Positions 2,652 to 62,389 are shown, numbered from the stretch's first letter. The stretch is DNA of 64,000 bases from Raillietiella orientalis (GCA_036172245.1 JAYWIR010000049.1:1116001-1180000); one strand, 5' to 3'. Notes: generated by a model from the sequence alone, not told the origin. Numbers and translations: made by a program.

Positions 2652-2840
2652 AAGTAGGCCACCGCGACTGCAGTGACAAACTTCCCTTCCAGGGTGAACT
2701 CAACAAGGTTGGCCAAGAGGGCCTTTAGGTGGACGCTCTGCACCTGCAGCTCCTGGTACACGGCGAGGATGGTGCAGTTCTCCGTAACCGAGTCGAAGAG
2801 TAGCACCGTGTCATTCAGCAGCCCCACCAGCTGCTGCCAC
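2652..2840 (-). other. Isolated coding-like exon of an unidentified gene or gene relic
   Basis: 189 nt, stop-free, bounded by ttccag| and |gtgagt, symmetric phase, strongly GC3-biased codons: WQQLVGLLNDTVLLFDSVTENCTILAVYQELQVQSVHLKALLANLVEFTLEGKFVTAVAVAY. Neighbouring putative exons are frameshifted. Confidence 0.45.
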
Positions 2841-10400: not shown

Positions 10401-11046
10401 GGCTGGAGAGCAGTCGAGTTCACGATGCTGCTGCTATCAGCAGCGTGGAAGCGTTTCGGAAAGGCAACCGCTTCTCCTCCTCCACGAGCTCGTCCTCAAG
10501 CACTTGGATACGCAAAGCTGTGCAGTCCACCAGGAATTTACTTATTTGTACGAAATGTACAGAAATCTTTTCTGCCTCGGAAAAGAAAAAAAAAAAAAAA
10601 ACTGCATGAAGAGCATGTAAGCTGGCAGTCGACAGCACTCCACATTTGAGCGAACCGATCCGTGGGCCGAATCGGAAATGACGCATGTTTGGATCAGCTG
10701 TTCCCCTGAAGCCATCCCGGATCTGCTTGCTTGATGCCGTATAAAAGTCCTCCATAATGCAGTAATCGACTTTTAACGCCGAAATTATCTCCGAAGGCTC
10801 GTTGGTTGCATATGTGGCAATTTAATTCCCGGCTAGAATATCACGTATTTCCAGGACAAATGTTCGAAGCCTGATAATTTCCAGAAACTTTGTGTTGCAA
10901 GACCTGGGTAAGACGATATTATAGGAAAACTAGTAAAATATTAACTATCAAGTGGGAAAACAACGAAACGCGTAATTACATATTGTAATTATGGCTACTG
11001 AAATGAAATTACCGTTCAGTTTGATTTATTTCCTGGGAACGATTAT

Positions 11047-12823: not shown

Positions 12824-15800
12824 TTACCAGTGTTCCACCACGTTCTTCTCGGAAAAATGAAACCGATGTATTTTAAGAATTCCATCCTTGGAAGAGGAAG
12901 TCAGCTCGTGCTTGGCATTGCATTCGGAGAGTGGACGCCATTTCAATCTCGAAACGGTCTTATAGTGAGCTAATCTGCAGCCGTTAAGGAACTTTCACGA
13001 AAGGCTGCACGCACCTGTGAGATCAATTCACAATAGCACCGAATCTGAGGCACAGCAACTGAAACAACACGATGAATGCATGCATGAAAAAACAGAGTTT
13101 CTTTTCACCACAGTGTCTGCATGAAACAAGCAGAACACGATGCAGGAGCAAAGAAAGAAAGAAAGAAAAAAAAAACGTTTACAAAACAAATTCCCCTAAC
13201 GTATTGAGGTCCCCATTAGCCTCAGAAACACCTTAGACGAAACTTTACTTTGGGCAAAGAGCTTCCGCGAGACGCTGAGCATTCTGTTAATGCAAGAGGG
13301 CAACGTGGAGATGTACCACGACTACGACTAACTGCGGATGAAACGCCACAAACGCATTGAATGGATAAGAGGCAAACCTCAGACGCTTTTGCTGGTCAAC
13401 ACCAAAAGGATACGAACTATCGAGTAGCATCAACTCCCGCCAACATCCAGAAATTCGATTCCAAGTCCACAAAACGATGTGTCCATTTTCCAGACCAGCT
13501 GCCAACCCGTAGCTCTCGCCGTCAATTAACCTTTTGCAAAAGGCTACAGTAGTCACGGGAAAAGACTGTTCTAGAGATGGGCAAGCAGCCCCGTAGTCCC
13601 TCAGAGATGAGTCGCTGCTGGATGCGGCTCTGGTCCACAGCACTATTTTTTTGTCTCTTGATCCGGTAACGAAATAGCGACAGTCGTGAGACCAGTCGCA
13701 GCTCCAGATGATTCTTGTGTGTATGCCATTGCTGTTGTCAGAATACGCTGCAGTCGTAAATAGAAGAGTAGACCCTAGAAGGGCAAGCAAACTGGTTAGC
13801 CAGCGGGAATAAAGACTGTTTTGTCTCACGGCACGGGAACAGGAAAACCTGTCTCGAATTCTCTTCTGCGTGAGCAGCCGCTGCAGTTCATATCCGTGGC
13901 TGACTTATCACGCATACACCGCCGTATTCTAATTTCGCGAACCGAAGCTTCGACTCTGCAAATCAACATCCGAACACCTCCTCGCAAGAACACCTATCTG
14001 CACAAGATTTGTGTAAGCTACCGGGTTCTTACATTCGGGTAACTGAAACATGAAGGGCCAAAACGTAGGTGCACAAATGATAGAAAGATCCTGCCTACTT
14101 CCTTCTAAGAGTGCAGACTAGCACCCTCGCTCTTACAAAGCATCTCGAAAAGAGAAGAAGAAGAAGAAAAAAAAGGGCACGTCCAAGATGATACTAGAAG
14201 AGGTTCGTGGCAAAATTACAGTGACTTTCTGCGCAGGAATACATCACAAAAGAGCTGGATTGTCGAATTTTAAACTTCAAGAAACGTATTCATTTCATTT
14301 CATTTCTTTATTTTTTTTTTTCATGTCTTGCTGGTAAACAACGCACACGTCCGCGTGTGTACATGTACGCGAATACGTGCAATGTACACGCGCGCACGCC
14401 TCCAGGCTCCCTAATCCAGCCCGCCAGTCAGTCTTTACAACTGAGGTGACATCCTTTTGTGAGAGAAACAACAACCCCCTCGCATTTCCGCTTGAAACAG
14501 CCAACCTGTCAGCTGGAACCTTTGGGAGGTCCTGTTACAAAGTGTTCTTCCCCGGAAAACTCCAAGACAGCCGTTCCTAGAATGCTGAGCAGGATCCTCA
14601 GACCTACTATAAACTGATGTGAATGGTTGCAACGAGAGACAAACTGTTCCGCATGTACGGTCACGTGGCAACATCCAGAGAATACGCGGGCTTCGCACGA
14701 AATCCACGGATCGAGGTGGCGAGATGGAATTCGCGCAATTTTCGTCTTAGGTTCTTCTTGTTTGTTTGTTTGTTTTTTTCTCTTGGCAAAACGATCCAAA
14801 GATTATTTTCGTAGCTTCGAAACGCTTCAGGTGAAGAAACAAGACCACAGCAAGAATAACTCGAAGACACCTGCGCCTGGGAGACAGAGATCCGTCCCCT
14901 GGCGCCCAAGAGCACAATCCTTCCTTTCGCGAACGAAATGAAGTTTTGCTCCATAGCGAATGAAAAAAATCAATGATGAAAATTCAGGGGTTTCAGTGAT
15001 CCCCCGCATGACGAGTCTTTCGAAGCTTCCATTTGGTCAGCCAAAGCGCAACAGGTAAGGATCTTCCTTGGTTGCTGCTACCACAGAAGAAGAGCAAGAT
15101 TGGTTGCCAACCAAAACCGACGGCAGATCTTGGAAACAGATGAAAGGGTTATCTCGCCTTGCGCCGGTTCATCTCTGACTGATGTCAGGTTCTCGAATGC
15201 CTGACAGAAATCACGGTTCCCTGCTGAAACCTCTCTTCCAGAAACTGTGGATGCACCGAGTCCTTGCAACTGCTACTACAACAGTCAGATCCATTGCTGA
15301 GAAGGACAACCCGTGAAGATGAATGGGACACGGGAAATCTGTCAGGAAGGATAGCAACAGAAGCATCCATGCGCACCACTTCTGCAAAAAGACACTAACG
15401 GTAACGTGTCGTACACTAGGGCTCCACTCCAATGATTTGGAAAGAATTTTTCCCGCTGCTACGCCATCCAGTATAGTTCACCATGTATGGCTTTCTTAAC
15501 AAGCAAGCTGACACAACTCCTCAGAATGGATAAATGTTGTACATGTGTACCGATGATAGAAATCGGGGGTAAGGAAGGCAGGAATGCCACCTTAGGATCT
15601 CGATCGCTTAACGAAAGAGGGGCATCCTACCTACGATTATTTGGCCATAAGGTACCATTATTGTATCAGAAACGTACGCATCATTTTTCTGGAATTACAC
15701 TGCAAGCTAAAGAAAAACATTAATGAACACACACACACACAAAAAAAAAAGACTTATTGGTTACGGATGTTTAATCGGCTGGTTCTCTTGCTTAAGAATG

Positions 15801-18800
15801 GAATGAAATCGAATCTGTTGGTATGTGTGTAAAAACATACCAATTACATGTCCTCTGCTTTTTTTTTTTTTTAACTTTCCTTCTCTTAGGTTTCTTCTAA
15901 AACACTGGCCATGGGCAACCAAACTAGTGAACTCCTCCGTCAAAATACAAACGCACAGCGAAAGGCCGAACATTCCAATGAATGGAATCATTCACGGAAA
16001 AGGAAGTTTTTGTACAATTTATTCCACGCAAAATGCAATGATTGCTTTCTAATCCTGACCTGGCCTGATTAGAACAGTTTCTTTAACCACCCTCCCCCCT
16101 TTCCATCCGGAACAGCAAGGTGAGACCTAATTCACATATTCTTTTCCACAAAGCAACTGCATCGGAATCTGATATCTCATTAGACTGTCTCGATCTTCCA
16201 GAATTTCGCGTTCAGTTTAAAGTGCAAATCCTGAAACGTTTACAAACAAAGACTGTGAAATCCGATCCCCATCGTGGAAACTCTCAAGGTGAAACCGCAA
16301 GAGTTGTCGTTTCCCTTTGCTCGCTGCATCCAGTACAACCCAAATTTGCATCAATCCCAACAGACTCAGGTGAGATAGCACAACCTCCGTTTGTCTCAAA
16401 CCATGCCACCCTTCGATATGGGTCCGTTCCAGAATCAATCTTCAGCCAGCTGATCTGTTGCCCGATTTAAGACTCTCCTTATAATCAAATTGCACAACAT
16501 GTGCAGCCTTGAAAATGAAGAAACAACCATTTGAAATCACTCCGCATCAAATTGGGAGCTGCACACACCGAAGAACCTCAAATTCCTTAACATGACCTCG
16601 AATGCCTCAGTATACCAAATGTCTGATAAGTAAAGAATACGAAATCTTCTTAGAAATGAGATTTGCAAAGAGAGGATTCGTAACTCGGCAGTAATCTTAC
16701 AGCTATTTTAACGGACAATCTGCTGTTTTATCATTTAATCCATCCAATAACCATTTCCAGAACAGACATTCTGAAAAATCGAGAAAAATCAGTGAGTAGT
16801 AAACGGAGAGAGTTATTCTCTAGGGCATAACACAATCATTAGTTTGCGTAGATATGGGAAAGTGTTTCGTGTGAATCCTTTAAGAATGAAGATCGTGTTT
16901 AATCCAAAGCGAAATTCAGTTAATGTGGGTCTAGTGGGTGAGCAGTTACCATAGCCAGGTGCCCGCAACCTCTTCAATCTGAACCTATCGTCTTAAAGAT
17001 CGCCCCAAGAAAACGCACAAGAGCATCGTTTCTTCAGATAAAAGCGCTACCACTGCAAAAAAAAGGAAAAAAAAAAAAAAAAAAAGAGGCATGTTGTCAC
17101 GTTAGAACAGAAATCTGATTTCGAGGAAAAAGCTGTTATAAAAGAAATAACCAGTATCGGAAGAGCACTGGGACTTGATGAAAAGGAAGGCCAACGATGA
17201 AGATGTTCGGGAGCTGCTGGATTCACACGTGGGAGGACACCGCCTGATGATGATCTGCTTTTTGATCAACGAAGAGCCTTTGAAGAAGCCGGGATGACGG
17301 TGATGCCAAAGTGGCAATGTGCAGGCGAAGAGGTTCACCATGAAGGAATCTGAAGCTTCAGGACGTTGAGGCAAGAAATTGTGGATGCGGATCTCAACCT
17401 GGACCAAACCCGCCGACACACGCAAAGGAGTTCTGCCTCTGCAGGCACGTGCACGAAGACTTCAGGAGGAGAGCCCAGTCTGTGTGCACGAAGACTTCGG
17501 GAAAAGGGAGAGTCCAGCCCACGCTGTTAACATATTTCGAAAGGCAATGAAGATGCTTTTGTCGGTGTAACTCATCCTTCACGAATAACACTTGGAACTT
17601 TTTTGTCTTTTCTTTTGCTCTCTACAACTGATCTGTGACTTTGCTAACATAAATTCACACGTTGAGTGGATTCTTTTTTATTTTTTCCACGCAGTATTTC
17701 CTTAAAAAGCGAAGACATTCTCCCCTGCCTGCCTGGTTTCTATTAAGCTCGAACCAATTACATATTCCACGTACAATGTGTGTGTGTTCGAACATTGCGG
17801 CTATTTCACGAAACGAATTATTCGCACTAATCGCGGCCTGCCAGTATTTCTGAGGTACCTTACATCAGTGTCAAAATCATGACTTTGATGATAAGAATCG
17901 TGTGTGATGATAACATATCTATGTAAACCTGTGGTTATACATAATGATCTATCTGATTCGAATACCTGAGGACTCGGACTGTATGCTGAAATAATCTGAT
18001 CCAAACTTATCATCAACTTATACAAAAATCCAACCGAATGCAAACAAAGAAATGAACTTTTTTGGTACCGGCGAGCAGTCTTTATGACGAAATCGATCTC
18101 ACAATTGTAAGATTTGACTGATAATATAGCACACAAAAACAAACTGAATCCAAAACCGGTGGTCACGCAAAATAAGCGGAGCCGGAAGGCTTTACTCGTT
18201 TACATCACTTTACTCATTACGCTTCAGCAGCGGTGAAATCACAAAGAGAAGCTGAAAATCAGCGGTGCAACGGATGTTTTCGAAAGCCATTTAAGATAAG
18301 GAGCAAAATAGACGGGAAAAAAGCGTATGGGATTTCCGCATGTGCGAATTTCCAATTCTACGGATCAGCTGTTTGCTTCCTCCAGGCAGCCACTGTAAAA
18401 TTGTCAGATGGAGACTGATCATGGCCTTTCAAAGTAACTTCCCGTTGTCCACGCTCAGTGCTTCACGAAGTGTATTTTACTGCAACACTGAAGCACAACC
18501 GCAGTATAAATGTACTTCATGGGATTGATCCCGTGATCCTGAACACCGGTTTCCCATTCTAGCAATACGAAACAGTAAGCGTGAAATCCTATCCATTAGA
18601 ACCCGTAGATTGCGGCTGTCTCCTACGAACGCAACATACGATCAGCACACACGACTACTGATTAGGTTTCGTCATCAAAATTCATGGAAAAAGTTTCCAT
18701 ATACCTCATGACCGCTTTTCCTTTATCGATAATCTCAAAGCAAACCACGAAACAAAAAGTGGACAAAAAATCGAACTCCACCTCGATCAAAAAAAAAAAT

Positions 18801-21800
18801 TAAAAAAGCATCTGGTAACGCTGCTCATTGATAAGACAAGGACGGTTACTTAGAACGCCAGCCCGAGCAACAACCTAACCATATCGAAATAAGAGAGGAA
18901 GTTTCCAAAAAGTGAAATCGCACGAAATGTTTCGAATACACACGCCAAGTCCTTCAAGCTTCTCTAAAATTGCATCTTCATGGATCGCTGGTTGTCACCA
19001 AAACCAGTTATTGAACCGGGAGATACTCGCGAGGGGTTTGTACTTCTTCGTGAGCACTGCTAGCACCCATTTCTCCCCCCCTCCACCCCCACCCCACCAA
19101 GCTACAAAAAATACACCACAAAAACAGGGAACATCTTTTTGCCACGTGAATCGGAAATTTTGAATTCGAAAGGGAAAACATCACCTACTTCCAAATCCAC
19201 GATTTTTGCCGAGATCAACAACATACACAGTAGCAAGTCTTACTGCCTGTCTTCCAGTCATCCAGAGAATTGGTTTTTTCGAACAGTGTCCAAGTCCGAT
19301 CCCTGGAAACCGACAAAAGAAATGCATCATCAGGAGAAAACATCATCTGCGTCACTGTGAGATTGTGACGCTGCAAAGCCTGAACTTGTCTCCATGTTAC
19401 TGTTTCCCTAGAAAACGATGCGAAAGGAAAAAAGTCACTCGTTCTCACCACACTATAATTGATGCATCCACAGCCGAAGACGACTTTGCAGCTGAAGCAA
19501 TCAAATCGCCTCCGCAGCTGGCACACAGAGAATACACCTCGAAACTGTGTCCATATAGTTTATGCATTTCTGGCCACAAAGTGTGGTGCCTGAGAACATC
19601 TTCAGAAGACATTTCTAAAAATCCCGGTAACGTTTGCCCGGTCCAGCTTAAATCACCTTCCCCGAGCTTCCTATCGTTCCCCAGTTTCAGTTCACCGTCC
19701 CCATACACAGGCTTATTAGAAAGTCCTAATGCGGGAGCAAAGGCTCTGGTCGGAACACCTTCTACGAAGAAACCAATGAAAATAGCAAAACAATCTACAG
19801 GAGCCACCTACCATCACAGGCATAAGTCTCCGTGAAAGACAATCCAGTGGACTCCCTGAAATGTTTTCTGAAATTTTCTGGAGCTTGAAAAACTCGAAGA
19901 ACCTTTTCTTCTGCTCCGGATACGAACATCATTTCGTTAATAAGGCTGACACAAAATATCGCATGCCCGTGAATTTGTGGACGGGCCAATTCGTGCCACA
20001 GCTTCTGTGGGACAAAGAGAAGAATGACTTTTCCGAGGACTGAATACGCAGTGCATGCATGCGTGAAACGAATATGCCAACGATCGATGTTACTGATACG
20101 AATTCACACTTCAAGAGCTGTCCTGATGTAATTTCTGGGCCATCAAAAAAATACTTTGTACGAAATCTCTTTCCAGAAATAAGAACGAAAGGTTTCCGCT
20201 TTCGCGGCCGCCAGCTGGATGGCACTTCATGCCATACCGTAGCGGTACATAGCCATACCTTGCCGTTCACATTCTGTATTTCGATTTACCGCGGTGGACT
20301 TGAAAAGACATAAGCAGACTGAGTTTTTTTCATGCCAGGTGAGACCGAGACTTATAAGGCCATGAAATGAAAAGATAATGATGCTTCCAGAATAATACGA
20401 CTAGACTGCAAGGATGCTTACTTGATTGTGCATCGAAAATAATGCAAAAGACATAACATGGAGATTTCCACGAAAACGATGCTTCAGAACATGCTTTACG
20501 AATAAATAAGATGTATTAACGCGTATTTAGCATGTGTTGATGAACTGTACATGACATGCGTCTCTCGCGATTCTCCGATCATTTCAACGTGAACTTTCCA
20601 AAACTGGAGTAATGGACTTGCAATTATGCCTGATTGGAAATCACGTATCCTTGAAACTCCTCCTGAATTGAGGGATAAAAATTTCGCCTGATTCCCCAAA
20701 TCCGACTATACACCTACAGGTAAATTCCATAGGTCACTCGTATTTTCAGAACCGTTGCTGCATCGACAGTTAGAAGAATCCAATTTCAGATGATAATAAC
20801 GATTGGAAGAACTAATGGAAAGCTATGAACACCTTTTCGCTACTAATTTCCCAGTGTGGGTCAGCTTCTTTCTTAGAGGGGAAAGTGCACGCAACCCAAT
20901 CGCAATATATTCTTTGTGGGGTTTCCGAAAACCACACAAGCAGCTGTAAAACAGATAACAGATTAGCTTCCGGCGTGAAATAAAAGCATTTCAAAATATA
21001 ACAACTAAAGTCCCAATAAACGAGCATTCTCTAATCAATCTGCTTCCTAAAGTCAACTTCTTTCTGCATCTGCACCCTTTCAGGCAATACTATTGCGATT
21101 TCTTGTAGAAAATGGCTGTTTTTGTTTTGCTTTCACTTGTAACTACTGAACTGCTCTGTTCCTTTTAAAAACAAAATAAAAACAGCTGAGACTCCCGTTC
21201 TTGACGAAAATCCATTAAAAAAAACTTGAAATAAAGAAAAAAATCGCATAGCACGGCGTCTGCTTCCTCCACACACACACACACACACACAGGAAAAAAC
21301 GGATAACACACGATTCTTGTCTATTCTTGCTCGCACACAAACAAACGCTCCTGTACATTATACACAGTACTGTACATACTATACTTGAAGTACTGTGAGT
21401 GATTAGGGATCATGTCGCGTTTCAAAGGATTACTTTCTGATGCGTACGAATTGTAACCACCCTAATCACAGCAAACTGTACACGAAGACCATTCACACGT
21501 AAGAACCACAGAAGAAAGTCTGCTTATTATTTTCGAATTCCTCCTTTCGTTCCAACTAGGAAGGAAAAAACGAGAACACAATACCCCCTCGACGAAACTG
21601 ACAGATTTCTATCCTGGAGATCAAACATGTGAACACAAGCATCCAAGAACGTATGGAGCACAGTGCGGAAAATGGGACCAACGTTCCCAAATACATTTGA
21701 AGATCATAACCACGCATAAAAGTGTTGGATGAAAATCGCAGAATTCGGGATAGTAACCACGCGAAGAGGACCTCATCACTTTATGAGCATGGGAATCAAG

Positions 21801-24800
21801 GACCATCTCGCACAAACTTGAAGCCACTGTTTTACCAACAAGGATTTGAAAAGTTCTAACTGACAAAGGGAAAAGAAGGAAAGTACCTAAAAAAGCAAAT
21901 TACTGGAACCTTGTCCCCCCCCCCCCCAAAAGAATAAACACCAAGATACAAACCAGGAGGAATGGAGACAAACTAGATGACGAATCTGAGGATCGAAGAC
22001 TCATTTGCAATAGCTTGAAATCCATATGTAACTCTGATCCTCGTAGTTTTCCTTTTTTTTTGGGGGAAATTCCACGAAAAAATTGCAACTATTTGCCTTT
22101 TGTTTCCACATAATCAGACTTTGTGAGGCATTTTCCGTTTTGACAGATGCAGAAGCCAAATTATTCTCTTGGGTAGGAATCACGAAATATGGCTTGTTGT
22201 ATAACCACTTAAGATTTAATATATTACCCGAGTCATTATAATGAGGCGTCGCGGTAATTAAACGCAAACTGAAAACATAATCTCGGTTGAATTATACCGA
22301 ATGTGGTATGCATTGCTCTTCATTTGTACAATAATCAAAAAGAGATTACATTCCGAGATGTCCACAACGGGATATCCTTTTCCCTCTTTAATACGAGGTA
22401 TTTGAAGACAAAAACTAAATCAAAAGATTTAAGACCTTCATTCAAAGCATAGTTGCGCATTCATAATTAAAATCTGATTGGTTTGTTAGCATCACTGCTG
22501 GACCAGAACAAGACTCTACTGACAAGACCAATCACATTTTCCGGAAATAGAAAGTGTAGGATAGATTCTCGAACATTACCAAATGCCCAAAGGCTCCGAA
22601 AGCTTTAATAATTTTCTTTCATCCATACTCTGAGACTCTACAAGCATTAGTAATATATAGTTACGAACATATATTATCATTTTTGCCTGGAAATCAGTTT
22701 GATCAGTTCACAACACGTATTTATAAAATTCGAATTCATTTTGACTATTATCCCTCAGTCCGAAGATTAATGCCTCTTATTTTAATATAGACTGATATGC
22801 TTTTCCCTTAAAAGTTCTTAAAGGTTTTTTTTTTTTTTTTTTTTTTTTACTAACAGTCTTTAAATCACTGCGAGAAATGATTTACTTTAAAAAACACTCA
22901 ATATGATGAGCAACTCAGTATGATGCATTCGAAGCTGAGCAGTTCAACCTGCGCAGAAAAGCATTTGTAATGTATTAAATATACAGGCACTTTCAAAACC
23001 TCAAACTTTTCAAAATCTCAACTTTCTCAAAACTTTTCAAACTAATGTACAAGCTGTCCAGATGCAAGGGATAAATATTCAAATTTTTTTCGTAGTTTTC
23101 TTTGATCTGATTCCACTGAGCATCTTAAATAAGAAAAGATTTGTTTGATAACATGCCCACGTAAGGAAAAAACTGAGTAACACGTAGAAGATTACACGGT
23201 TTTCAATTATCTCATATCGATTCGGAATGTCCTCTGCATTTCTGGCATCCCTGTCTGATTTGGTAACTCAAGTTCATTGCAAACATCCCGTCATCCTATG
23301 CGTTCCTGTAGTAATGTTCATTGCAAAAGTCGTTTTCTTGTTTACGCCTTTGAAATAGTTGTGCCCACAAAACACAAAAAAAGTTCATCATCACTATCTC
23401 TCCTTTCTTTTACATTATTTCGTGGAAGTTATTTCCGATTTCTTTTCCTCTTTCGAGAGTCATCTATCTCCAACCAAACCAAACCTTTCGTTGATCTTGT
23501 ACAATTTGTGCCCAGATTTTTACTGAATAGTAGTTTTTAGCCACCTTGATGTGTTATTTCGTCGTAAACCCGTCATCTGACTCATGGAAAGGACTTTTCA
23601 AAATCAAGGCCAAGAATTTCGAATAACTGTTTTAAATATAGTCCTGACATCGAAATAAGCTCTGCACGTGTTCAACACAGGACATTTCTTTTCAAATCAG
23701 TTTTCCAGCGGCAATTTTTCTTGTTTTCTTCAACAAACTGCTTTATCTGCTGGACAAGCTTCCTGGAATTGACTTCTGGAAGCCTATTCAACATTATGTT
23801 CATGTGGAAAACGGGTTAGTGATTAAATACAAAGAAAAATAAATGTTGATATGGATTATGTTCGGAATCTAAACACAACTGGAAAACTAGGTAATCAGCT
23901 TCATGAATGATTTCACGAATCCCAAAGAAACACTTTGATTGGAAGGATTACTTTCGAAAGAGAAATTGAAAACCGGTAAAGAAGCAACTCCTAAATTCCC
24001 GCAAATATCTCTGTTATGAAAAATTATATCTGTACTGTTTTAAACTCAAAAAACATCCAAAACACATGCTTGCAAACGATGTTTCAGCTGTTTATTAACT
24101 GGAAAACAACAACAAACTCCTCAGTAAACTGAAAACTTTTTTTTTGCATGTTGGCAAACTTTAAAAGAAGCTTCCAATGACAGAACTTCGAACTCTGATT
24201 AAGTAGAGACATAGTACACCCAGGCTAAAGCCTACAAAAAAGTACCTTTACCGACAGATACATAAAATGAATTTCCAAAGTATTGTTCTCAAATGAGGTC
24301 TTAAGGTTCTCAAATAAGGTCTTTGAATTTTCAATTTCTAAATAATATTCTGTGTTGTAAAAGTAAATAACTGTCTGTCTAACTAGAATAACTGTCCGTA
24401 AATATCTGATTGAACATGGGAAATTTCACAACAAAAGGGTGCATGCAAACAGGCATGATCAATAGTTATTTTTTCTGACAATAAAAATTAAAGATCCTTA
24501 AATGAAGAAAAGCTTACTTGACAATGTGTGCTTGCATGAAGACGGGTTGTTTGATCTAATCCTGTTGACAGAAGGTATTTGCCATGCTGTTCCCAACTCA
24601 AATCTGTAATTTCACTTGTATGACCACCACATCCTTTTTTAGCTTGCCATGTTGTATTCTAATTTTTGTCAACTACAGAAACTGCACAATTGTTTGAACT
24701 TACCTGTTTCTGCCACACATATATAGCCCCTTGATATGTAGAAGCAGCAATTAAGTGAGCATCCCAACTCCAACATGCTTTATGGAAACCTGGAATGTTC

Positions 24801-25922
24801 CCTCCTGCAATCCCTATACATTGTGATTCAAGCCACAACTTATGATGATCATCAAACTTCCAAATAATAATCAGTTTATCAATAGCTGCTGTTAATAATA
24901 AAGGCCATTTCTCAGAATTCACTAATGGACACCACTGCACAGAAAACACCCAGTTTTTATGTCTACTCAACACTGATTCCAGATGGACAACATAGGAAAC
25001 ATCAGTTGTTGTCCACAAAACTGTTAACTTCAGATTAAGTGACAACTGTGTTCCAGGTTTGTCTTTCCCAAATTTCCAAAGACGCACTAATCCATCCTGA
25101 GCACCACTAGCTAGCAAGAAAGCATCTTCCTGAATTTGGCAAAAATCCAAGCAGCGCACCCAATCCTTATGGCCTTCCAGCCTGCTAATATTTTGGAAAG
25201 TATGACTACGTTCTTCACTCAAATAAAGATGAACAGCGCTGTCTTCTCCTGTCCATGCCAGCAGTATTCGTCCTTCCCAAATGGAAACCATCTGGATATC
25301 CATAACCAGATGGGAATTCCATTGCATTACTTGGATCAAAGAAGCATCTGCAGAAATTAAGATTGTTCTTTCTTTTTCCATTTAACATACCAGAAGAATC
25401 TGAATCATATTTCCAAACATGACATTCACATTGCTGATTGACTGTAACAATCAATAAACTCAAATCCTTAGATGAATGACAACAAATTCCAGAACATGCA
25501 TCTAAAGGCTGGGAACCTTAATAGAAAAACGCATCTGCAAATGATACCCTAATAATTCATTGACTAACCTGGAATTGTACATAGAAGCACTACTTGAGCT
25601 GTAGCTCCCTGGAACTGCCACACCTTTGTAGTGCAATCTTTAGATGCTGTCAACATGAAAGGATGCTGAGAGCACCCACAACATTTGAGAACAACAATTG
25701 TATCCTGATGTACATGCAGTGTCTGAATTGGTTTGAGATATTGGTCTTCCTGTTGATGAAGTACTTTTAAAGCACTAGAATTATGCAGCTAACCTGCATG
25801 GTACATACTACCAAAGCCTGACCAGAGGAAAAACACAAATGCTGGGGAGAACAGAAATCCAATGTATGCGCTCCCTGGGAACATGAAGCAGCAATATATA
25901 AAGTCTGATGTTCTAGATTCAT
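12824..25922 (-). CDS. Elp2: Elongator complex protein 2 (WD40 repeat), 10 exons, ~800 aa
   Basis: Exons 25922-25794, 25749-25569, 25516-25391, 25347-24704, 24658-24518, 20004-19812, 19761-19449, 19407-19244, 13774-13414, 12974-12824 join in frame (2403 nt). Diagnostic motifs: LEGHKDWVRCL, WHELARPQIHGH, SGAEEKVLRVF, PALGLSNK, TLWPEMHKLYGH, HNLTVTQM..LLSVSRDR, HTRIIWSCDWS..TGSRDK. Confidence 0.96.
12975..13413 (-). other. U12-type (minor spliceosome) GT-AG intron, last intron of Elp2, 439 nt
   Basis: 5' site |GTATCCTTTT. Branch site TTCCTTAAC (12991-12983) lies 8 nt before the 3' junction (GGCTGCAG|), with no polypyrimidine tract. Splicing restores the Elp2 C-terminus LAHYKTVSRLKWRP...SSSKDGILKIHRF. 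Confidence 0.92.
14570..14720 (+). mobile_element. Possible LINE (RTE/L2-like) RT C-terminal relic in Elp2 intron
   Basis: RDKLFRMYGHVAT resembles the RRxLRWxGHVxR motif, preceded by an RILR-like stretch. Short and decayed. Confidence 0.3.
15050..15350 (+). mobile_element. Possible LTR-retrotransposon RT/RNase H relic in Elp2 intron
   Basis: VRIFLGCCYHRRR (~VRSFLGLxNYYRRF) followed by ETVDA (~xTDAS). Weak. Confidence 0.25.
17150..17520 (+). mobile_element. Tigger/pogo-like transposase C-terminal relic in Elp2 intron
   Basis: ANDEDVRELLDSH...KRFTMKE...DLNLDQ resembles the Tigger C-terminal pattern DEDDVxELLDSH / FTxKEL / DPNxER. Ends in a ~34-nt tandem duplication (gtgcacgaagacttc). Confidence 0.5.
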
Positions 25923-25968
25923 TATTTCTGAAACAAAATAAGCTGGAAATGTTTCTGAAAGCCATATA

Positions 25969-25974
25969 TTTATT
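25969..25974 (-). terminator. Candidate polyadenylation signal (AATAAA) of the Ack-like gene
   Basis: Only AATAAA between the Ack-like stop (26057) and the Elp2 ATG (25922). Confidence 0.55.
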
Positions 25975-26056
25975 TGCTCCAGGTTCAAGGGACGCAACTC
26001 CCTTAATCTGCATCAGATCCTGTCTAACTCTAATACAAAGCACTGTCTGTTACACT

Positions 26057-29000
26057 TCAAACATTGGTGACATCGCTGCCAGCTGCCATCAACAGGCTGG
26101 CTGCACGAGGCACATCCCAAGCACACTGTCGCAGTGTTTCCCAAGGATTCTCTGGTGTGAACTGCTGTGCTTTCAAAAGCAGCTGGAGACGTATCAGTTT
26201 AATGGCATGATGTACATTCCAATCTGTATGATTTAATGCCAAAACACAGCTATTAGCATCTACTCCAGATCCAGATAACACTTTCATCATTATGCGGACT
26301 TCATCAGACTGAGCACCCTGAGCTTTTCCTTGTGTGCGTTTTGTGTTTGGGAGATCACAAGCAAATTCCAAAAGGTCTTCACAAGAAACATGGTCATGGT
26401 TTTTGTGAATAACCTTAATCAGCATCTCTTCAGAACCATTCTCAGAGAAATGTTCCAAATGTTCCTTCTCAAAACACTCACTGAAAGCACCATTAAAGCA
26501 TCAAATCTAATTCCCACCTGTAATTGCGAGGCATGGAAGGGGTACTGTTCTCCATTAGGGGAGGAGCAGACACAGGAACTGCTACAGCATTTGCATCATC
26601 CAACTGTTTGCCATCTTGCTGCACATCTTCCGCTTAGATGATGCATGATTAATCAATACTCGCATTTCTGGCTTACCAACACAACTGACATCGGGAAGCG
26701 AATTAAAAGATGTCTGTGATGACTGAGGTATAATCAGTGGATGCTTCCGTTGGTGACGAGGCTTATCAACTATGTAGGACTTATTTCTATCTCGAGGAGG
26801 TAAAGGAAGTGGATTCACACTTGGTAACAAGGAAACCATATCTTCCCTTGTAGGAGATAGGTTATCAAAAGAATCATGAGTAGAATTCAAAATATTCAAA
26901 GGAGAGGGTTTGCTAACAATCCGGGATCTACAGGAACTTTCTGGATACACATGTTGCATGACATCTGACTCCTTTTTGTAGGACAAATTCCTTCGAAGAT
27001 TAGTATGAGTCTCCTGTTTGTCCTTGGATCCTTTGACTGCTGCTTCATAAGTAACTGATGTACTTCTGGGAAAAGCCTTTAGTACAGGCTGCTGGATAAG
27101 TGCATTATAAGCAGCTTTGGCCTCCTCACTAATTGAGTCCTAATCTGAATAATCTCTATGTTCTGTCATGAGTGCACACTAACTTGTAGATCGTGGGAGT
27201 TGCTTTCTGGAAGAAGTTTATCACTCTTCAGATTTGCTTTATTCCCATGAAATTTGAATGAAAATTTCTTTTTTGATGGTGATGGGGGATATGCTGAAGG
27301 GTGACCAGCCTCAAGGTCAGTCTGCAATTCAAGCATGGATTTGCTTGCTATCTCTTTGGCAATTAAAATGGCAGCATCCAAATTCTTTTGATCTGTGGCT
27401 GAAATAGGCTTCACCTGTAATTCACCTAGAAAATGTTGCCAATTCCATAATCTTTCCATACCGTGGCCTGTTTTTTTTTGTTGTTATCTCGACTTAGCAT
27501 TTTGGCTGTTAATTCTTTGATTTCATTTTTCATGTTATGAGTTTCATCCTGATTGGATCCAAATGCGACAGTATTGCTTGAAAGAGCTCCCATAACTTCA
27601 TCCATCAGACTAGGGCCAAGATCCAACATTTCAAAACGAGGACTTTCAATGGCTACTTCTTCATCTGAAATTTCGTGATACTCATGCTCTGCTTTGCCCT
27701 CTTCCTTGAGGTTATCTATTGAGGACCAGCGTTGTTCCTCAGCAGGTCCAGTATTCCCATGATCTCCCACAGCCATTATGAGTGGTGCTTTGTCTGATAC
27801 TTCTGAAGACGGCCTTAGCACATTATTGCTTAAATCTTGGTCGTCTTGAGGCTTGTAAGGAGTAACTACTTGCCTAGGTAGCTGTTGATACTGATTTCAC
27901 AGTTCACCATGCATACACACTCACCCCAACCCTTACTTTATTGCCCAGAAAAGATATATCGCCAAAGTATGCACCATCCAGACCCACATGACCAGTGTGT
28001 TTGACATCGCCTTGAGGTGAACTTATCATTTCTGGGCATAAACGGCGTCTAGAAAGACGAATCTCTGAAAATATTCGGATATAATGAGCAATCAGAAGAG
28101 TTCTAACCTCCTCTAGCAAAAGTCTGGCCAGCAGAAGGAATGCTAGTTCCAAGGTAGGACACAGTGGAAGAAGGTTTAAACAATCCTGTTCTGCTGCTGT
28201 TGAGTACTCCTTTCCATACATAAGGGGCATCTGCAATAGGTCTGAAGCCAAAGATTATTTTGAGCAAGGAAATACAAAAAGGACCTTCTGTCTAACACTG
28301 TGATGATGTCACCCGCTTTATATGTCAAATGATTTAATTGAGAAGGTTGTTCACTGTCCGAAATAGCCTGCACTTGTTCAGGCCGGCACTACAAGCACAT
28401 CATTCTTGTTGCATCAAGGAACAGAATAACAAAAGTATACCTCTGGTAAAAGAACCATCATATCAGCAAAAGTGGGGCGTTTGTTGGGATCATGCTGCCA
28501 GCAGCAAAGCAGCAAACTGTAGATCTCCTTGGGGCAATGTTCTGGCATATCCAGCCTCTAAGTGACAAAAAGAACATAAAACATCTCCCAGTAACCTGTC
28601 CTTCTCAATCACAATAACTGTATTTAGATTATAACTATCTTGCTGAATAAGCTATTTTTGCTACACTTATATTTTAAAATCAAAGAACCTGTATATTAAT
28701 GTACTAACAGAGCACCTTTACAATCATTATCAAAATTAAAAGACTTAAAAAAGCTAGAGCACAAAGAAATATTTATGGACTTTTATATAAGTTCTCTCTT
28801 CTATTGCATTAGTTACTTATTAGTTTTCACTTTATTTTTTAACTTAAATCCATCCGAACTACACCTGTCCAAGCACAATACATGCAGACTTCTATACACC
28901 TTCACCTTTCACTCTTTCCTTTATCCTCGAAACTGTACACAGTGATCAAATTACCTGAAAGTTTGGCTTATCGATAGCTGCTAGAATTTGTTGGCCTGTT

Positions 29001-31154
29001 AAAGCAGCCCAAGGCTGAAAACCATAGCTGAACATTTCCCATAAAGTCACACCATATGCCCACATATCAGAGGCTGAGGTAAATCGCAAATAATTGATAC
29101 ACTCTGGAGCACACCTAATCAGGATATAGATATGTTCTGTAGCTGCCCTCACCAGGCAATGGGCAGTTTCAAATTAACATTGAAATTTGTCTGATAATAG
29201 TTTTTGCCCACTCCTAAGGCTCTGGAGAGTCCGAAATCCGAAATTTTCACATTGTTTTTGGAGAAAACCAGAATGTTCCGTGCTGCTAGATCTCTAGTTC
29301 ACCAAGATACTTCATGTTAGTTGTTCAAAAGTAACAACAAAATTGCCAATCATCCTGATTATTCACATCAGGAAGAAAAGAAATCCAATGTTTGCCAGCA
29401 GCAAACATACCAACATGCATGTGAAAATAAGCAATGCAAAGTTGGAGTAACTTTTTCCAATAAACAACTTGACAAGTTCATCATGCTATTTGGTAATAAT
29501 CAAAGCTAAACATCTACATGAACTATCCAAAGGAACAAATAAAGGTAAGGGGAAGAATTTCTGCAATAATCTCTCTAACATCACTAGTCATATCACAATG
29601 AGCATGCTGCTAGGCATTAGTCCCTTACCTGTGAATAAGGCGTTTGGATTCCAAATACTGCATTCCATCACAAATCTGAATAGCAAAATCACATAGTGTC
29701 AGCACATTAAAACTAGATCTCAATGCAGACTCTTTGAGGCACTCAAGCAAAGAACGAAGAGGTGCCAACTCAGTTACCTGCTCATCATCACGTTTTCAAA
29801 GCATAGTAATAAGCAACACTTACAAGCATCAAAGTACTAGTCTCTAAAACAACTCCATATAGCCTCACAATATGTTCATGATCAATGGTGTGCATAATAG
29901 CTGCTTCTTTCAAAAATTCCATAGGATTGTTTTCCATTCTTTCTTTGCTGAGACATTTGATAGCTACTTGAATCTGAAAATGAGTAAAAACATCTAAGCA
30001 GTTCAACATTCCTGGAAACACTCCTATTGTATGTCTACCAATAAAACATTCATGGAAAAAAACTACATTGAAAAGCTTGATTTTCATCTGTGCTTAGTGA
30101 AAATAAGTGATCAATGAGATAATAGCAAGAGTTTAAAATTTACTTATGTTTGTACAGGAAAAATAAAAAATGGATTACTGAATTAGAAAATTAATTACAA
30201 TCATTAGGCACATGCATGATAAATCAATTTTTTTTTTTACTGAAAATCCATGTAATTTTCACTGATCAACTGAAAGAGTGTCAAAGAAAAGCTACAAAAC
30301 ATCTGGCAAATTCATAAAATTTATGAATCTTATTAATTTATTTTACCCATACATTTTTTTTTTTTATAAACTAGAAATTTCTGTATACACTATGAGAAAG
30401 AACAAAATTACTTTCCCACATAATTTCACAGAATTTAGAAGCAAGTAAAATAATGCATGCCAACATGTAACTTGACACATCAAAATTCCAATGTATCAAA
30501 ATTCTTATACTCTCTCATTGTCATCGTTAGTCCATACGCCTTGCTGTACAACTCCGAACTCTCCAATACCAAGTTCTTTATTAACTGTTATTGCACTTGA
30601 TGGGATTATATGTTTATTAGGTACTTTTATGGAAGTTTTTGCTTGTGATCCTTTGGATACTGATATGACCGCAGAATCGCCGGCAAGTTTTTTTGGTTTA
30701 ATAAGCTGGAAATCAAACAGATGTATATTATTCCTTAATTAGCGAACTTCACTTCACATAGCTTATTACTACTCATATTATATATTCATATAAACGGGGA
30801 TTCTGGGCATGATTTACTTTTGCATTAATTTTTAAATATGCATTAACAAGCACAACTCAAACTTACTGAAATGATGAAAGATGCAATATAATAACAGATC
30901 ATTGTCAAATAACGTACCGTTTTGATTCTATTCAAGTAACTATGAGGATTATACTTTTGGTAATAATTTTTCAGTCTTCTAATTTCCGGTTTACTCATTC
31001 CTATTTGGAGCAAATCCTCATCACTTACGTACTTCATTTGAGAAACGTTCTGAATTTTAAGTTTAGTTTTCAGTGCACTGTAATAATGCTGCAATTCAGC
31101 TTCAATAAGAAATTCATAAAACCCTGGATTTTTGCATTGATGTAGGGATGCCAT
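26057..31154 (-). CDS. Ack-like: Ack-family non-receptor tyrosine kinase (PR2/Ack-like): SAM, kinase, SH3, CRIB, Pro-rich, C-terminal UBA-like; 15 exons, ~1058 aa
   Basis: Exons 31154-30918, 30705-30511, 29973-29824, 29777-29629, 29293-29153, 29114-28955, 28557-28441, 28388-28285, 28241-28108, 28064-27937, 27890-27462, 27414-27184, 27139-26677, 26632-26518, 26480-26057 join in frame (3177 nt). Motifs: [84 protein letters not shown]. Confidence 0.95.
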
Positions 31155-34100
31155 GTGGTGATTCTTAAGAAAACAAAGTCGAAAGATAAACTCTGTTGGG
31201 GTAATTTGTTTTCCACATAATCTCGTGTTCCATGATGAGTTCACAAATCATCATTTTATGAAATTCCTCTACCATTCTACCTTTAGTCCACAAAATGCAC
31301 GTTATGCATTTACACTTGAGACGCATACCAAGGATGAAATTTTACACTTTTTCCATGTTCAACAATTTAATCATGCCGAATAATGACGTTTACTGTTCAC
31401 ATCTTGACACATTTCAAAACGTTTTCCAAAACTGGATTTAAGAATTGGATTTCAGCCAGGGCTATCGCATATACTGTTATGTAAAATCCAAATGGGAAAC
31501 GCTTTAAAAATTGCTTATTAGAGATAGCCATCAAAAATTCGTTTGCTTTTTATTCTCCTGTACTGTATTTATTCCTTAAACTCTTATTTCACTATCAGGT
31601 TCTCTAATTTTGTAATTAAGATACTTTTGACTCTGTGTAACGACTTCTACAAGTATTTCAAATTGTATGGAATCGAAAAGTAAACTTTAAAAAAAAAACA
31701 GCATTGGAAATTCATTTTTGATTGAACTATAAAATATACAATGACGACAATAGAATCATTATTATTTTTTTATTCTTCGAAGCTTAATCATGAAATCAAC
31801 AGATGCTGACCGGACTTGAAATATCACTTGACTTCAGTTTGATATAGGAAATCGAATGTCCTGTATAGTGTATTTCCTCCTTGAAAATGCCAAGAAGCAA
31901 CATAATCAAATGATAATCCCAAAAGACTATGCAACTCATAATAGCCATAGAGTCCTCTACTTACGCAGTCAACACAAATGGTAAACCTAGAATATTGAAA
32001 TAAAAGAATGCTACTAGCCTGACAGTCTAAACAAATAATTTGGAATCAAATCATTGAAACTTAATGAAGCACATGCTTCGAATTATGCTTATATATCATA
32101 TGCTTATAAATGTATATACATAAATGCAAAGATAATGATGAAAAGTAATGAAAAATTCATTGATTCACCTGAAAGCATAAGGTGAAACTTTATTGTTTTT
32201 CATGTTAATGCAAATGTTTGGCAACTCAGAAGGTTTGCTCTAAAGCACGCTTATTTTTTATTTCAAATATGTTTCAACCTGTCTTCTGAAGGGCTGCAAG
32301 AAAGACCTCATAGGGGTATCAGCTCTTAGGAAGACAAATCTATGTTTTAATCATGAATCAATCTTCATATTTATTGACTGATGATTTTCGACTGATCTCT
32401 GCAAGAGCTGGAAGCTTCAATATATGCATAGCAAAGTGGTTTGTTCTATGCTGAATAATTGCCCATGATGACAGTCCACTAAAGCTGCTGTGGCTTTCCA
32501 AACGGAATTCTTAGTTTTATATGACACCAAGTTATCTCAGAAGCTTTCGTGTGAGATATGTCCACAACAAATGTAAGTTTTTCGAGTTATTCATAATCAA
32601 ATTGTATTTTCCAGATCAGATAAACTATGTGGTCTAGGAGTACATCTGAATAAGGAATTCAGATCAGATAATTCTTTCTAGCACCATTGTTTCAGTTTGG
32701 AAGAGATTTAAGAATAATAAACCAAAACTCTCTTCGGGTAGTTTCTTCGATGTGTTCCACACATCCATAGGTTTCCTTTTGCAAGTCCGGATAAATTTCC
32801 GAGTGAGCAGCGTTAGAAAACGGAAGAATTCATTCTTCCAGACTCATATCGGAGAAGTGTACATAATTATGTACATAGTCTTCGTTGCATTTCGTCGAAC
32901 AAGTGACCTAAAAGGAAGCAATGCATATTTTATCTTTATTGCATGATTCAAGATTTTCTCTACATTTAAGAGAACTCTTAGGCAAAGATAACTGTTTGCC
33001 ATGTACGCAAAAAGTTCCTTTCTCTTGTGCATTCATCAGTTTCAATAAAAATTATATGACCAGATTTTGCCGGCTTCCAAATTAGATAAATGAATTGTTT
33101 GGTAAGTGATTGCAAGACTGTCCTTAAATGCAACGGCTCTGCAATAGCTCCTAATTTTGTCTCTATGAACAAATCTTCATTTTTAGTCTCTTGCAAAAAT
33201 GTGGAAATGCAAAAGCTTATAGATGCCGTCCAATTTGAAGTTGCATACTAGTTGATCATCAGAAAATACTAAAGAAGCATGTTCTAAATTCAAAAATGCT
33301 TCTGCATCTACCTCCAGTGAATTTACTTTTGAATGGAGGACTTCTTCACCGCCAATAAAATAAGGAAGGCATTGTTGGCATTTGCTGTCTTTTTCAATTC
33401 ATTGATTGCAAAATTCTAACCATGTGAACATGGCTGAAATGTCAATCTCTACATGACTATGAAGTTGAGAGACAACTGCTGTTCAGAATATGGTTTCTTT
33501 CTGAAGGTGTGTGTGTGCTTTGTTTTTGTTTTTTTTCATTTTTCAATTGCACCCAACCACGACACTTGGAGAACTAATTATGCACGAGTCAGGAATTTCA
33601 AATAGGAACATGTCTTAATCTGAGCAAAAATACACAAAGGAAAATGCGAATTTCATTCCACCAAAAGCTTACAAGAGTGATTCACGTTTTCAGAGATGAT
33701 GCTAGAACTCCCTCAACGCAATATCGACTCGTGATATCAATGAGAATAAAACAAACATGTGGCTGATATGAACTTGAGAACAGAGTAAACATTTAAGAGT
33801 ACTCAGTTCAAATAGGGAAAATACGGAGATGCTTGAAAGCTAGCCGACCGCATACAGTCAAAACAAAGTGTTTGGTCAGGGAGTTCGTGTTGCCTCGTGT
33901 TTATTTGTCTCTTTTTGATACTTTTGCCATCTGTTCCTCGAATAATTAACAATCCTCGTCTTGAGTTGCAATTTTTGTGAGGTCTCACCGCTCACAGTAA
34001 ATTCACTGATGCATATGACCTCACTGCATTGCTGGACCTCGAGAGAAAAGCTACTGTGAGGTCTTTTTTGCACCTGTACCCTTGGTTTGAGACGGAAAGT

Positions 34101-40824: not shown

Positions 40825-41574
40825 ATGGGAGTTCCGGTGAACATACATGTTAAAGGTATGTGTTGTATTTCGTATATTTAGATTGATATGCAAGAGTGTA
40901 GAATCATCGATTGAAATGGTGACATTACTCTTGGGACCTCCCTATATATTCGTTTGTTTTCTGCGGAAATTGTGCATCTTTCAGAAAATTTGTAAATCAC
41001 CGAACCACCTATTTGCTGAATTTATGTCTTTATGAACAGACTTTGTTTAATGGTGTATTGCTGTTCTGTATTGTGATGTATAATCGAATCGTAATTCCAT
41101 CGGCCTTTTTTTTTTTTTTATTTCTTTTCAAAACGTTGTGTAAAATAATTGTGCTGTTTCTTGAATTACGCCATTACCTTCAGTTATACTTAACTGCAGT
41201 CAAGTTCATTAATGAAACAAATTACGTGCATTATTTTCAAAAATACTTCTTCCGATCATATTTTGACTCCTATATTTTGGTTTTCCTTTCAAAATATGTT
41301 TTTGAAAAGCAAATTGCTTAAGATAATTTTATTTATTTTTATTGTAAAACAGTCCCGTCATAATTGAAATATGTGATATTGCCATTTTTTTTTAGTCATC
41401 AGAGCCCGGGGTCTTCGAATCAAAGGAAAGAATGGTAATTAATTCTTTGCACATTTTAACTGTTTGAGGCAACACTGAAAATTTTTTGCAGCAGTAATGA
41501 CGAAATTTACATATATATTTTAAGGTGTTTAATTACCATGAAACACAAAACAAGGCGAGGAAAAACCACCTTAA

Positions 41575-41611
<37 letters not shown>

Positions 41612-43421
41612 ATATATAAAGGTGTTTTTTCACCATACTATCATTGTAAAGCATGCATTGATATCACAGTTTTACACTATACTAATAGAAATGAAACTAG
41701 TATTTTGGTTATATGACTTTGAATGTGAAGTTGCATGTTGAAATACAAATTTTGTTTGATTTCATTGAAGCATCATTGTTTCATATGTATATTTTCTTGT
41801 TTAATGTTTGTGATTATTCCTATGTTTTTATTATAAAGGGACCAATAATGTCTTTGTCACCATTAGTCTGGGGAAGGAAAAATTTCGAACTTCTGTTCGA
41901 TCTAAAACTCTTGAACCAGAATGGAATGAAGAAGCAGAGCTGTTAGTGAGTTATTGAATGTCTTTCTATTATTCATTCCATTTAGCCCTATTCCCAAACA
42001 TGGAAATACTGCAAAGTTAGTTCTTTCTGCATATCATGAAGTGTTTCATGGTGTCAAGGATGATTTTCTTGGAGAAGTGGTGATCTCCCTTTTTGATTTG
42101 GATCTCCGAGATTGGCCTGTTGGCAGGTACATACCGCATTATATGCAAAAAAAATAAAAAGCAGATGGTTGCAATTACGTGGTCATGGAGGCATTGATGA
42201 TGGCAAAGAAAGAGGAGAATTGGAAGTACATATTTCTTTCACATCTCAAGTCCTGACAGATGTACAGTCCAATGCAATTAGAAATAAAAGTAATTCATTA
42301 CAACACATATCAAATGCAGCACATGCATTAGGTGAGAAAGAAGGAAATGAAATTTTTTTTAGTTGATTTAATTAGGAGGGAGCCTTCTGAGCCTGCACAG
42401 GAAGAACATGGGAATGCAAAATGCTCTAAGTATGTTTCTTTATGTCAAATATCAGATTAGCTAGCATTCCTCAGAACACAAAACTAAATTCCATATTTCA
42501 AGAACATTTGGGTCAAATCTCCACTCTTCTCAATCAGAATGTGTAGATGAAGATGCAGTTTCTGAAGATAGTTCGGTAATTTGCTTTAGCAACACACAGT
42601 TTTTCTGAAATCATAACACAGAATGATCCATCACATAGTCGAACTTCTTCAACATCTGGCTCAACTTTTCAACATGATGGTTCCTATGAAGGTTTACATC
42701 TGGATTTCATAGGAACAAAGAATGATGACACACAAAGAGAAAATAAAGGGAAAAAACTCTTGAAGCAATCAGGAACCCAGTTATGTGAGAGCAACATTTC
42801 TAGAGGATTTCAGTCTAGTTACCAACTTAATAACTGTGAGAAATTCATTTAATTAATATCTAAATATTAATGTTAGAATCTTCATATGTGCCATGTACAG
42901 ATAAAGATTTGATGTGAATTTTCTTTTAGCATTCGATAGATTAACTCCCATATCGAATACACCAAAAGGAAAACAAAACTGTAGTCGAGGCGTAGAAAAA
43001 TGGCAAGAATTGGATTCTGTCAGTCATGAGGTAAAATATTATAATATAGTGCCCAATCTGATACACCAGATTTCCCTCTTTTCTATCTCTTGAGATCTCC
43101 AGGCAGTGTTGCCTTGATTTTTGTTTTTAATTGTTTTCAGTAGGTGGGATGTGTGACATAATTACTTTGGGTTTTAGGTTCTATAAATATTTTCATTGTT
43201 ATTGTAAATTGTACTTTGTATCAATGGTAATTAAAGCAACTATCTCTTTTCCATAGCGACTTATAAAGAAACTCTTGCAGCAAGACAAACTTATATCAGA
43301 ACAGGCTGAAATCATTGAAGATTTGCAATGTTATATTGACACCTTATTAGTACGCATCATGGAAAGTAATCCTTGCATTTTACAGGTTCCTTATAAGAAG
43401 TCCCAAAGTGCCAAATATTAA
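40825..43421 (+). CDS. Rip11: Class I Rab11 family-interacting protein (N-terminal C2, C-terminal Rab-binding domain), 10 exons, ~371 aa
   Basis: Exons 40825-40855, 41396-41434, 41839-41941, 41986-42126, 42165-42331, 42376-42429, 42475-42575, 42622-42835, 42930-43030, 43257-43421. C2: RARGLRIKGKNGTNNVFVTISLGKEKFRTSV..PEWNEEAEL..DDFLG..KERGELEV. RBD: EDLQCYIDTLLVRIMESNPCIL. Middle exons are inferred from phase only. Confidence 0.92.
41574..41617. repeat. (TA)n/(TATG) microsatellite
   Basis: Direct reading; lies in Rab11-FIP intron 2. Confidence 0.9.
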
Positions 43422-62385: not shown

Positions 62386-62389
62386 TACG

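Follow-up and report, generated by a model that had tools for sequence, protein, structure and literature searches.

The window analysed here is a stretch of 64,000 nucleotides (nt) from Raillietiella orientalis (GCA_036172245.1, JAYWIR010000049.1:1116001-1180000). Two of its genes lie head to tail on the minus strand, i.e., a gene for an Ack-like tyrosine kinase and, downstream of it, the gene for Elp2. Only 134 nt separate the stop codon of the first from the ATG of the second, unlike the other genes mapped in the window, which are kilobases apart. On the coding strand, the gap contains AATAAA and then three acceptor-like AG sites 14-41 nt beyond it, the last (25928) at 41 nt. The question was how the Elp2 mRNA obtains its 5' end, and the tentative answer is that both genes may be transcribed together, with Elp2 receiving a spliced leader (SL) in trans. 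An earlier note on this DNA had placed the gap, the AATAAA, the three acceptors and the 5 nt between the last of them and the Elp2 ATG, and all its coordinates were correct on re-reading. Its names for the two genes were also borne out, by SAM_TNK and kinase matches for one and ELP2 matches for the other.

The upstream gene was assigned to the Ack/TNK kinase family by its predicted domains. SAM_TNK was matched by the first coding exon (2e-25), and the tyrosine-kinase domain PK_Tyr_Ser-Thr was found in the exons at 29.8-30.1 kb and 28.9-29.2 kb (5.4e-12 and 5.2e-15). The last 71 residues aligned weakly (E 0.15), end to end, with a TNK1 UBA construct (residues 6-76 of 78), which agrees with 26057 as the probable natural C-terminus. 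The SH3 and CRIB regions were recognised by eye only. The protein-atlas comparison of an Ack-like exon gave a score of 0.76 and no closer identification. For the last intron, the pair 26676 to 26481 was rejected as out of frame, and neither the stop codon nor the gap is affected by this.

The downstream gene is Elp2, which encodes a WD40 double-propeller protein, and it aligned with ELP2 including the N-terminus. A frame of 240 amino acids (24662-25381) matched the human and mouse ELP2 structures 8ptx_B (1.1e-27) and 8avg_B (1.2e-26) of PDB at residues ~151-371, and tblastn with the Elp2 representative P0027 covered its residues 170-754. In 22 of the 40 best alignments of the N-terminal model, residues 1-9 were paired with residues 1-12 of the relative. 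By these alignments ATG 25922 is the orthologous start, and therefore no coding exon is missing from the upstream side. The best relatives of Elp2 length among 1.8 billion representatives showed 29-41% identity, so that the lineage appears isolated or fast-evolving. The protein search with the 240-residue Elp2 exon returned nothing at near lengths and two irrelevant WD40 proteins at longer lengths, and the protein-atlas comparison gave generic WD40 clusters only. A metagenome scan for related loci found 80, all of them generic WD40; the best (L011, 66% G+C) was a bacterial-type WD40 gene.

The introns of Elp2 measure 44, 52 (or 67) and 43 nt, followed by two of ~4.5 and ~5.5 kb. No pyrimidine tracts were seen in the first three (25348-25793, minus strand), whose acceptors are caacag, attaag and ctgcag, and two donors read GTTAG. 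In the window, introns of at least 200 nt have pyrimidine-rich 3' ends, TTTCAG or TTCCAG.

Table. Features of the Ack-like/Elp2 locus, in window coordinates (o/e, observed/expected; UTR, untranslated region)
Feature	Position	Strand	Remarks
Likely conventional 5'UTR intron of the Ack-like gene	31164-31328	-	donor-like GTATGC 31328 (6.0 bits), CpG-retaining DNA
Ack/TNK-like non-receptor tyrosine kinase gene, ~13 exons	26057-31154	-	ATG 31154-31152; internal exon borders partly settled
TGA stop of the Ack-like gene	26059-26057	-	preceded by a GTT codon, read from sequence
Intercistronic gap, 134 nt	26056-25923	-	37% G+C, one CpG (o/e 0.22)
AATAAA, likely poly(A) signal of the Ack-like gene	25974-25969	-	82 nt past the Ack-like stop
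AATAAATATAT, AATAAA plus its continuation; TATA-like reading also possible	25974-25964	-	
Acceptor-like site 1, ctttcag, G 25955	25961-25955	-	14 nt past AATAAA, within the expected cleavage zone
Acceptor-like site 2, tttccag, G 25943	25949-25943	-	
Acceptor-like site 3, cttattttgtttcag, G 25928	25942-25928	-	strongest of the three; 9/12 pyrimidines
Predicted exon start after acceptor-like site 3	25927	-	
AAATA, 5 nt between acceptor-like site 3 and the Elp2 ATG	25927-25923	-	
Elp2 ATG	25922-25920	-	
Elp2 gene	13287-25922	-	ELP2 structure matches, tblastn of Elp2 representatives, N-terminal model
Elp2 exon 1, 43 codons	25922-25794	-	44-nt intron next, GT at 25793
Elp2 exons 2-4 of the model	25749-25569, 25516-25391, 25347-24704	-	
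Later Elp2 exons	~24.6, 20.0-19.2, 13.9-13.3 kb	-	tblastn
Unbroken CpG-depleted block	24001-30500	.	o/e 0.00-0.46 in 500-nt bins; Ack-like body, gap and first Elp2 exons

The acceptor cluster of the gap is statistically unusual. With both strands of the 64 kb searched, three TTYCAG motifs within 40 nt were found at a single place, i.e., here, and when the 51.4-kb AT-rich part was simulated 200 times with a first-order Markov model, any such cluster arose in 4 of the simulations. Acceptors before start codons were scored by counting the pyrimidines between -15 and -4 and adding a bonus for position -3, and the highest-scoring site up to 12 nt before the ATG was taken. The Elp2 acceptor 25928 scored 12 at 5 nt from its ATG, and a score of at least 11 within 12 nt was reached at 2.1% of 2254 background ATGs. 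AATAAA by itself is common, with 74 copies on the minus strand of the window. The layout described in the earlier note is thus confirmed, and it is statistically unusual.

Among the other genes, the best acceptor before the ATG scored 11 for the Ack-like gene and 7 for RPF1 (TTTCAG, 8 nt before the ATG), and Nop16 and WIPI had none within 12 nt. An acceptor directly before the ATG in four of five genes had been considered and was rejected on this scoring, by which only Elp2 and the Ack-like gene are unusual. The Ack-like acceptor, a pyrimidine-rich AAG 9 nt before the ATG, resembles that of an ordinary 5'UTR intron, because a plausible cis donor (31328) stands 164 nt upstream and the DNA there is CpG-retaining.

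No such partner was found for the acceptors of the gap. With a matrix built from 17 donors of the window, no donor-like GT of at least 2 bits was detected within the 134 nt, and the closest good donor upstream (26676, 6.5 bits) is part of an Ack-like intron. The acceptors are therefore unpaired locally, as the earlier note had claimed from the sequence. On the minus strand of the AT-rich part (10.6-62 kb), 67 of 2853 GT sites reached at least 6.5 bits, which is roughly one in every 770 nt.

Two upstream ATGs (26013 and 25965) share one frame in the gap, and their open reading frame (ORF; 25789-26049) overlaps the Elp2 start out of frame. An unspliced leader beginning above 25965 would contain them, and splicing at any of the three AGs would eliminate them. 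Transcription starting in the last 40 nt of the gap would avoid them as well. The T at -3 of the second ATG makes this a weak argument for splicing. No significant structure was obtained when the RNA of the gap was folded (z -1.64). The 9-mer TTTCAGAAA has two copies in the gap and six in the whole window, where 3.1 are expected.

CpG is distributed as a mosaic across the window, with depleted blocks alternating with blocks of o/e near 1, from which we infer gene-body methylation. The gap lies inside a depleted block (table). In the 250 nt before the ATG, the CpG o/e of Elp2 was 0.32, against 0.83 for the Ack-like gene, 0.93 for Nop16, 1.45 for RPF1 and 0.69 for WIPI/PROPPIN (1.12 one bin further up); the four comparison starts were located by homology and reading of the sequence. 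The o/e stays at 0.09-0.53 over 1.5 kb upstream of Elp2, and CpG-retaining, promoter-like DNA is first found at 30.5-32 kb and 32.5-39.5 kb. Of the five genes examined, Elp2 alone is without CpG-retaining DNA at its 5' end, so the contrast drawn in the earlier note between a CpG-poor gap and CpG-richer starts elsewhere holds. This argument is indirect; Elp2 has no CpG-type promoter signature, and a CpG-poor promoter of the TATA type would be compatible with the same pattern.

The depleted block stops sharply at ~24.0 kb, within the 4.5-kb intron of Elp2 (24517-20005). The 3' two thirds of the gene (with the exons at 19.2-20.1 and 13.3-13.9 kb included) show CpG o/e of 0.7-1.26, i.e., one gene contains two compositional regimes. 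The split could come from methylation biased to the 5' part of the transcription unit or from young insertions in the long introns.

The sequence shows the order of stop, AATAAA, acceptor cluster and orthologous ATG, with neither a local donor nor a CpG promoter signature. Every reading that fits a 134-nt gap is a rare arrangement. It is probable that entry into Elp2 is by a genuine 3' splice site and that the 5' end of its mRNA comes from elsewhere, i.e., from a leader or an upstream exon. For the source of that end, co-transcription of the two genes with spliced-leader trans-splicing is put first, as a possibility held tentatively. Co-transcription is plausible and would agree with every available prediction at the sequence level. 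That the two genes are co-transcribed, that the acceptors are used and that the animal has a spliced leader at all is inferred.

Under spliced-leader trans-splicing, a two-gene unit would be driven from the CpG-retaining promoter region of the Ack-like gene at ~31.2-32 kb, and the polymerase would read on through the gap into Elp2. The AATAAA would direct cleavage and polyadenylation of the Ack-like mRNA ~10-30 nt downstream. Alternatively, the unpaired 3' splice site 25928 (or 25943, or 25955) would accept a capped spliced leader in trans, and the only 5'UTR sequence of its own in the resulting Elp2 mRNA would be AAATA. Each precursor would probably give either the upstream or the downstream mRNA and not both, because the acceptors lie within the cleavage zone past AATAAA. 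Where an organism trans-splices leaders and has operons, junctions of just this form are common. For this reason the spliced-leader operon is ranked first in spite of the weak placement of the taxon.

Several observations weigh against it. The named best matches of the RPF1 exon of the window are nearly all from arthropods, where SL trans-splicing is reported from copepods and amphipods only. Rfam, searched over the window at the gathering threshold and also at E up to 1, returned no SL RNA family; it holds few SL families, so this carries little weight. A statistically strong acceptor close to the ATG was found in two of five genes, and one of the two, the Ack-like gene, has a plausible cis donor, so the window shows no sign of pervasive trans-splicing. 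The composite of poly(A) signal, acceptor, ATG and open frame, when defined loosely, occurs at nine places in the window. The T-rich stretch of the gap could be the downstream element of a poly(A) site, and AATAAATATAT could serve as a TATA box.

The last two points belong together in the next candidate, a small promoter of Elp2 within the gap, which is rather unlikely. Here AATAAATATAT would double as the Ack-like poly(A) signal and a TATA-like box, transcription would start ~25-30 nt downstream near CA 25945-25944, and the unspliced 5'UTR would be ~20 nt long. The TTYCAG cluster would then act as a T-rich downstream element for polyadenylation and nothing more. The earlier note had seen hardly any promoter signature in the gap, which stands for CpG, and a TATA-like box may be present. 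The distance from T 25972 to CA 25944 is 28 nt, and 28 nt is a normal spacing from TATA to start. Such a start falls in the last 40 nt and so bypasses both upstream ATGs, and the composite motif that recurs at nine places is not rare. Tight or overlapping tandem genes do exist in compact arthropod genomes, but the other intergenic distances of the window are of kilobases and crowding is not forced. A promoter in the gap would also leave the window-unique acceptor cluster unexplained and would be without the CpG-retaining DNA present at all four other gene starts. The proposed start matches an initiator poorly, and housekeeping-type genes such as Elp2 are usually TATA-less.

A third explanation, which is unlikely, keeps the acceptor and dispenses with the leader. 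Acceptor 25928 would be the cis 3' splice site of a long 5'UTR intron, and Elp2 would begin at a distant non-coding exon. This exon could be the first exon of the Ack-like gene (donor-like 31328), with a shared promoter and leader exon, or a separate one in the CpG-retaining 31-39.5 kb; the Ack-like gene would be nested on the same strand within the first Elp2 intron. The pyrimidine tract and TTTCAG of the acceptor are of the type of the long introns of the window, unlike those of 43-52 nt, and Elp2 already has two introns of several kilobases. Promoter-like, CpG-retaining DNA is available upstream (the two stretches from 30.5 kb given above), and no spliced leader is required in a lineage without a known one. 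The price is that the polymerase and the splicing machinery would have to pass a canonical AATAAA 41 nt before the acceptor and skip ~13 Ack-like exons. No single upstream donor is prominent among the 67 good sites, and same-strand nesting with a shared leader exon is rare, the cholinergic locus being the textbook case.

A single dicistronic mRNA, with Elp2 reached by reinitiation or internal entry, or cleavage and recapping without a leader, would suit the short gap, and operon-like loci without a spliced leader are reportedly described in Drosophila, but this is very improbable, as both the AATAAA and the acceptor cluster would be left without a role and ribosomes reinitiate very inefficiently once they have translated an ORF of roughly a thousand codons.

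The lineage was approached through RPF1. The search with an RPF1 exon returned 774 proteins, with identities of 49-57% among the 120 listed. The named matches among those listed were all from arthropods, except for one Priapulus, two Trichinella and one Lineus. A tree was built from 46 of the 120 listed matches (28 named and 18 unnamed), the other 74 being left out. The RPF1 of the window was placed on a branch 2.0 long, in an open polytomy with insects and copepods (SH-aLRT 86). This points weakly to a pancrustacean position, and long-branch artefacts are possible.

Combined with the spliced-leader reading, this would describe an SL-resolved two-gene operon whose poly(A) signal abuts the acceptor, in an arthropod-like and possibly pancrustacean lineage that evolves fast and methylates its gene bodies. 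The combination as a whole is quite unlikely. SL-resolved operons are known from only a few animal lineages, and how they arose is debated. If true, the junction would mean a further independent origin, or a much wider spread, of animal operons, and would mark the lineage as a user of polycistronic transcription. It would also be a clean case of a canonical poly(A) signal 14-41 nt before trans-splice acceptors, in which, on every transcript, 3' end formation of the upstream mRNA and 5' end formation of the downstream mRNA must be in competition. In an arthropod that belongs to none of the groups known to trans-splice, the case would be new. If the junction is instead a TATA promoter laid over a poly(A) signal, it would be an ordinary curiosity of gene crowding.

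Other features of the window were noted. RPF1 (50713, plus strand; Brix domain) and Nop16 (47646, minus strand) are ribosome-biogenesis genes placed head to head, ~3 kb apart around CpG-retaining DNA, and are likely a pair with a bidirectional promoter. The last RPF1 exon (51588-51977, plus strand) encodes ~14 residues more than all homologs, between RHH.Y and KV.LKELGPRF, i.e., either a lineage-specific insertion or a short in-frame intron. The N-terminus of RPF1 is much shorter than those of its relatives. An ORF of 115 codons (47939-48283, minus strand) has a long T-run and CAG before it, and ~290 nt lie between its end and the downstream ATG of Nop16, a gene of the same strand. Should it prove to be a terminal exon, it would form a second tight tandem pair, with a CpG-rich gap; it matched no Pfam family and was not used as a control pair.

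The first 10.6 kb of the window (1-10600) have 53-64% G+C and CpG o/e of 0.6-1.2, against 30-45% G+C in the remainder, with a sharp drop at ~10.5 kb. Long open frames were present in all six frames of this block, none of the 30 tested frames matched Pfam, and no tandem repeats were found. The block looks non-coding. In a locally G+C-richer patch, a fragment of eukaryotic large-subunit (LSU) ribosomal RNA was detected at 62140-63291 on the minus strand (RF02543, 396 bits, model positions 665-1888 of 3401). It covers too little of the model and scores too low for a working unit of ribosomal DNA (rDNA), and is probably a pseudogene or an insertion derived from rDNA. TA/TG-rich repeats at 52030-52110 and 41554-41634 gave sub-threshold Rfam hits to mir-297, mir-1277 and mir-3688 (26-40 bits against gathering values of 81-90), which are almost certainly due to chance. 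The LSU fragment and these look-alikes were all that Rfam returned for the window at either threshold.

The junction was compared with known systems in which neighbouring genes share transcription or DNA. SL-resolved operons are described as having genes on the same strand, a short spacer and an unpaired acceptor before the downstream cistron (PMC1488885). The operon-type layout proposed in the earlier note agrees with this description in all three respects at the sequence level, in an SL1-type or tunicate-like manner, and departs from the ~100-nt spacing of the SL2 type. This spacer of C. elegans SL2-type operons is given in PMC1488885 and PMC7986045. Like the SL2 type, the junction has AAUAAA, a U-rich spacer and a UUUCAG acceptor before the downstream cistron; unlike it, only 41 nt lie between AATAAA and the last AG, and the fold of the gap is not significant (z -1.64).

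Tunicate operons also have very short spacers, and one leader serves monocistronic and operonic genes there. The median spacer is 1 bp in Ciona intestinalis and ~31-33 bp in Oikopleura dioica (PMC7986045). Of 18 Ciona operons, 16 have no AATAAA within 40 nt of the poly(A) site of the upstream cistron, and Oikopleura likewise has none (PMC1488885). The present junction differs from the Ciona type in having intercistronic DNA and a canonical AATAAA 14-41 nt before the acceptors. No tunicate appeared in the named rows among the 120 of 774 RPF1 matches listed. Ciona does show mosaic gene-body methylation. To our knowledge, CpG methylation is absent from most nematodes, flatworms and rotifers and from Oikopleura, and the strong regional CpG depletion seen here therefore argues against these groups, most nematodes included.

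The cholinergic ChAT/VAChT locus is similar in using one strand and one promoter region, with a downstream exon entered by a cis acceptor before the ATG. In that locus a small gene lies in the first intron of a large one, and both are functionally linked. Here the nesting would be reversed, and the gene to be skipped would be a kinase gene of 5 kb that has many exons and an AATAAA of its own. Tight tandem genes of compact genomes share the short distance from stop to ATG, and a poly(A) signal and a core promoter can share DNA in them. In such a pair the acceptor cluster and the missing CpG signature would be unexpected, and the window is otherwise uncrowded.

For arthropods, the available portions of PMC7986045, and also of PMC4664967 and PMC5111886, place SL trans-splicing in copepods and amphipods only and report no operons there. 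In C. elegans SL1-type operons, AATAAA is kept, little or no intercistronic sequence is present, and the acceptor lies at or just past the poly(A) site; where the spacer is minimal or absent, 3' end formation and trans-splicing have been argued to be mutually exclusive on one precursor (PMC1488885). The present junction differs from this type in placing three tandem candidate acceptors 14-41 nt past AATAAA. In geometry it is like the SL1 type, i.e., a pair of genes on the same strand, a canonical AATAAA for the upstream gene and an acceptor near the poly(A) signal.

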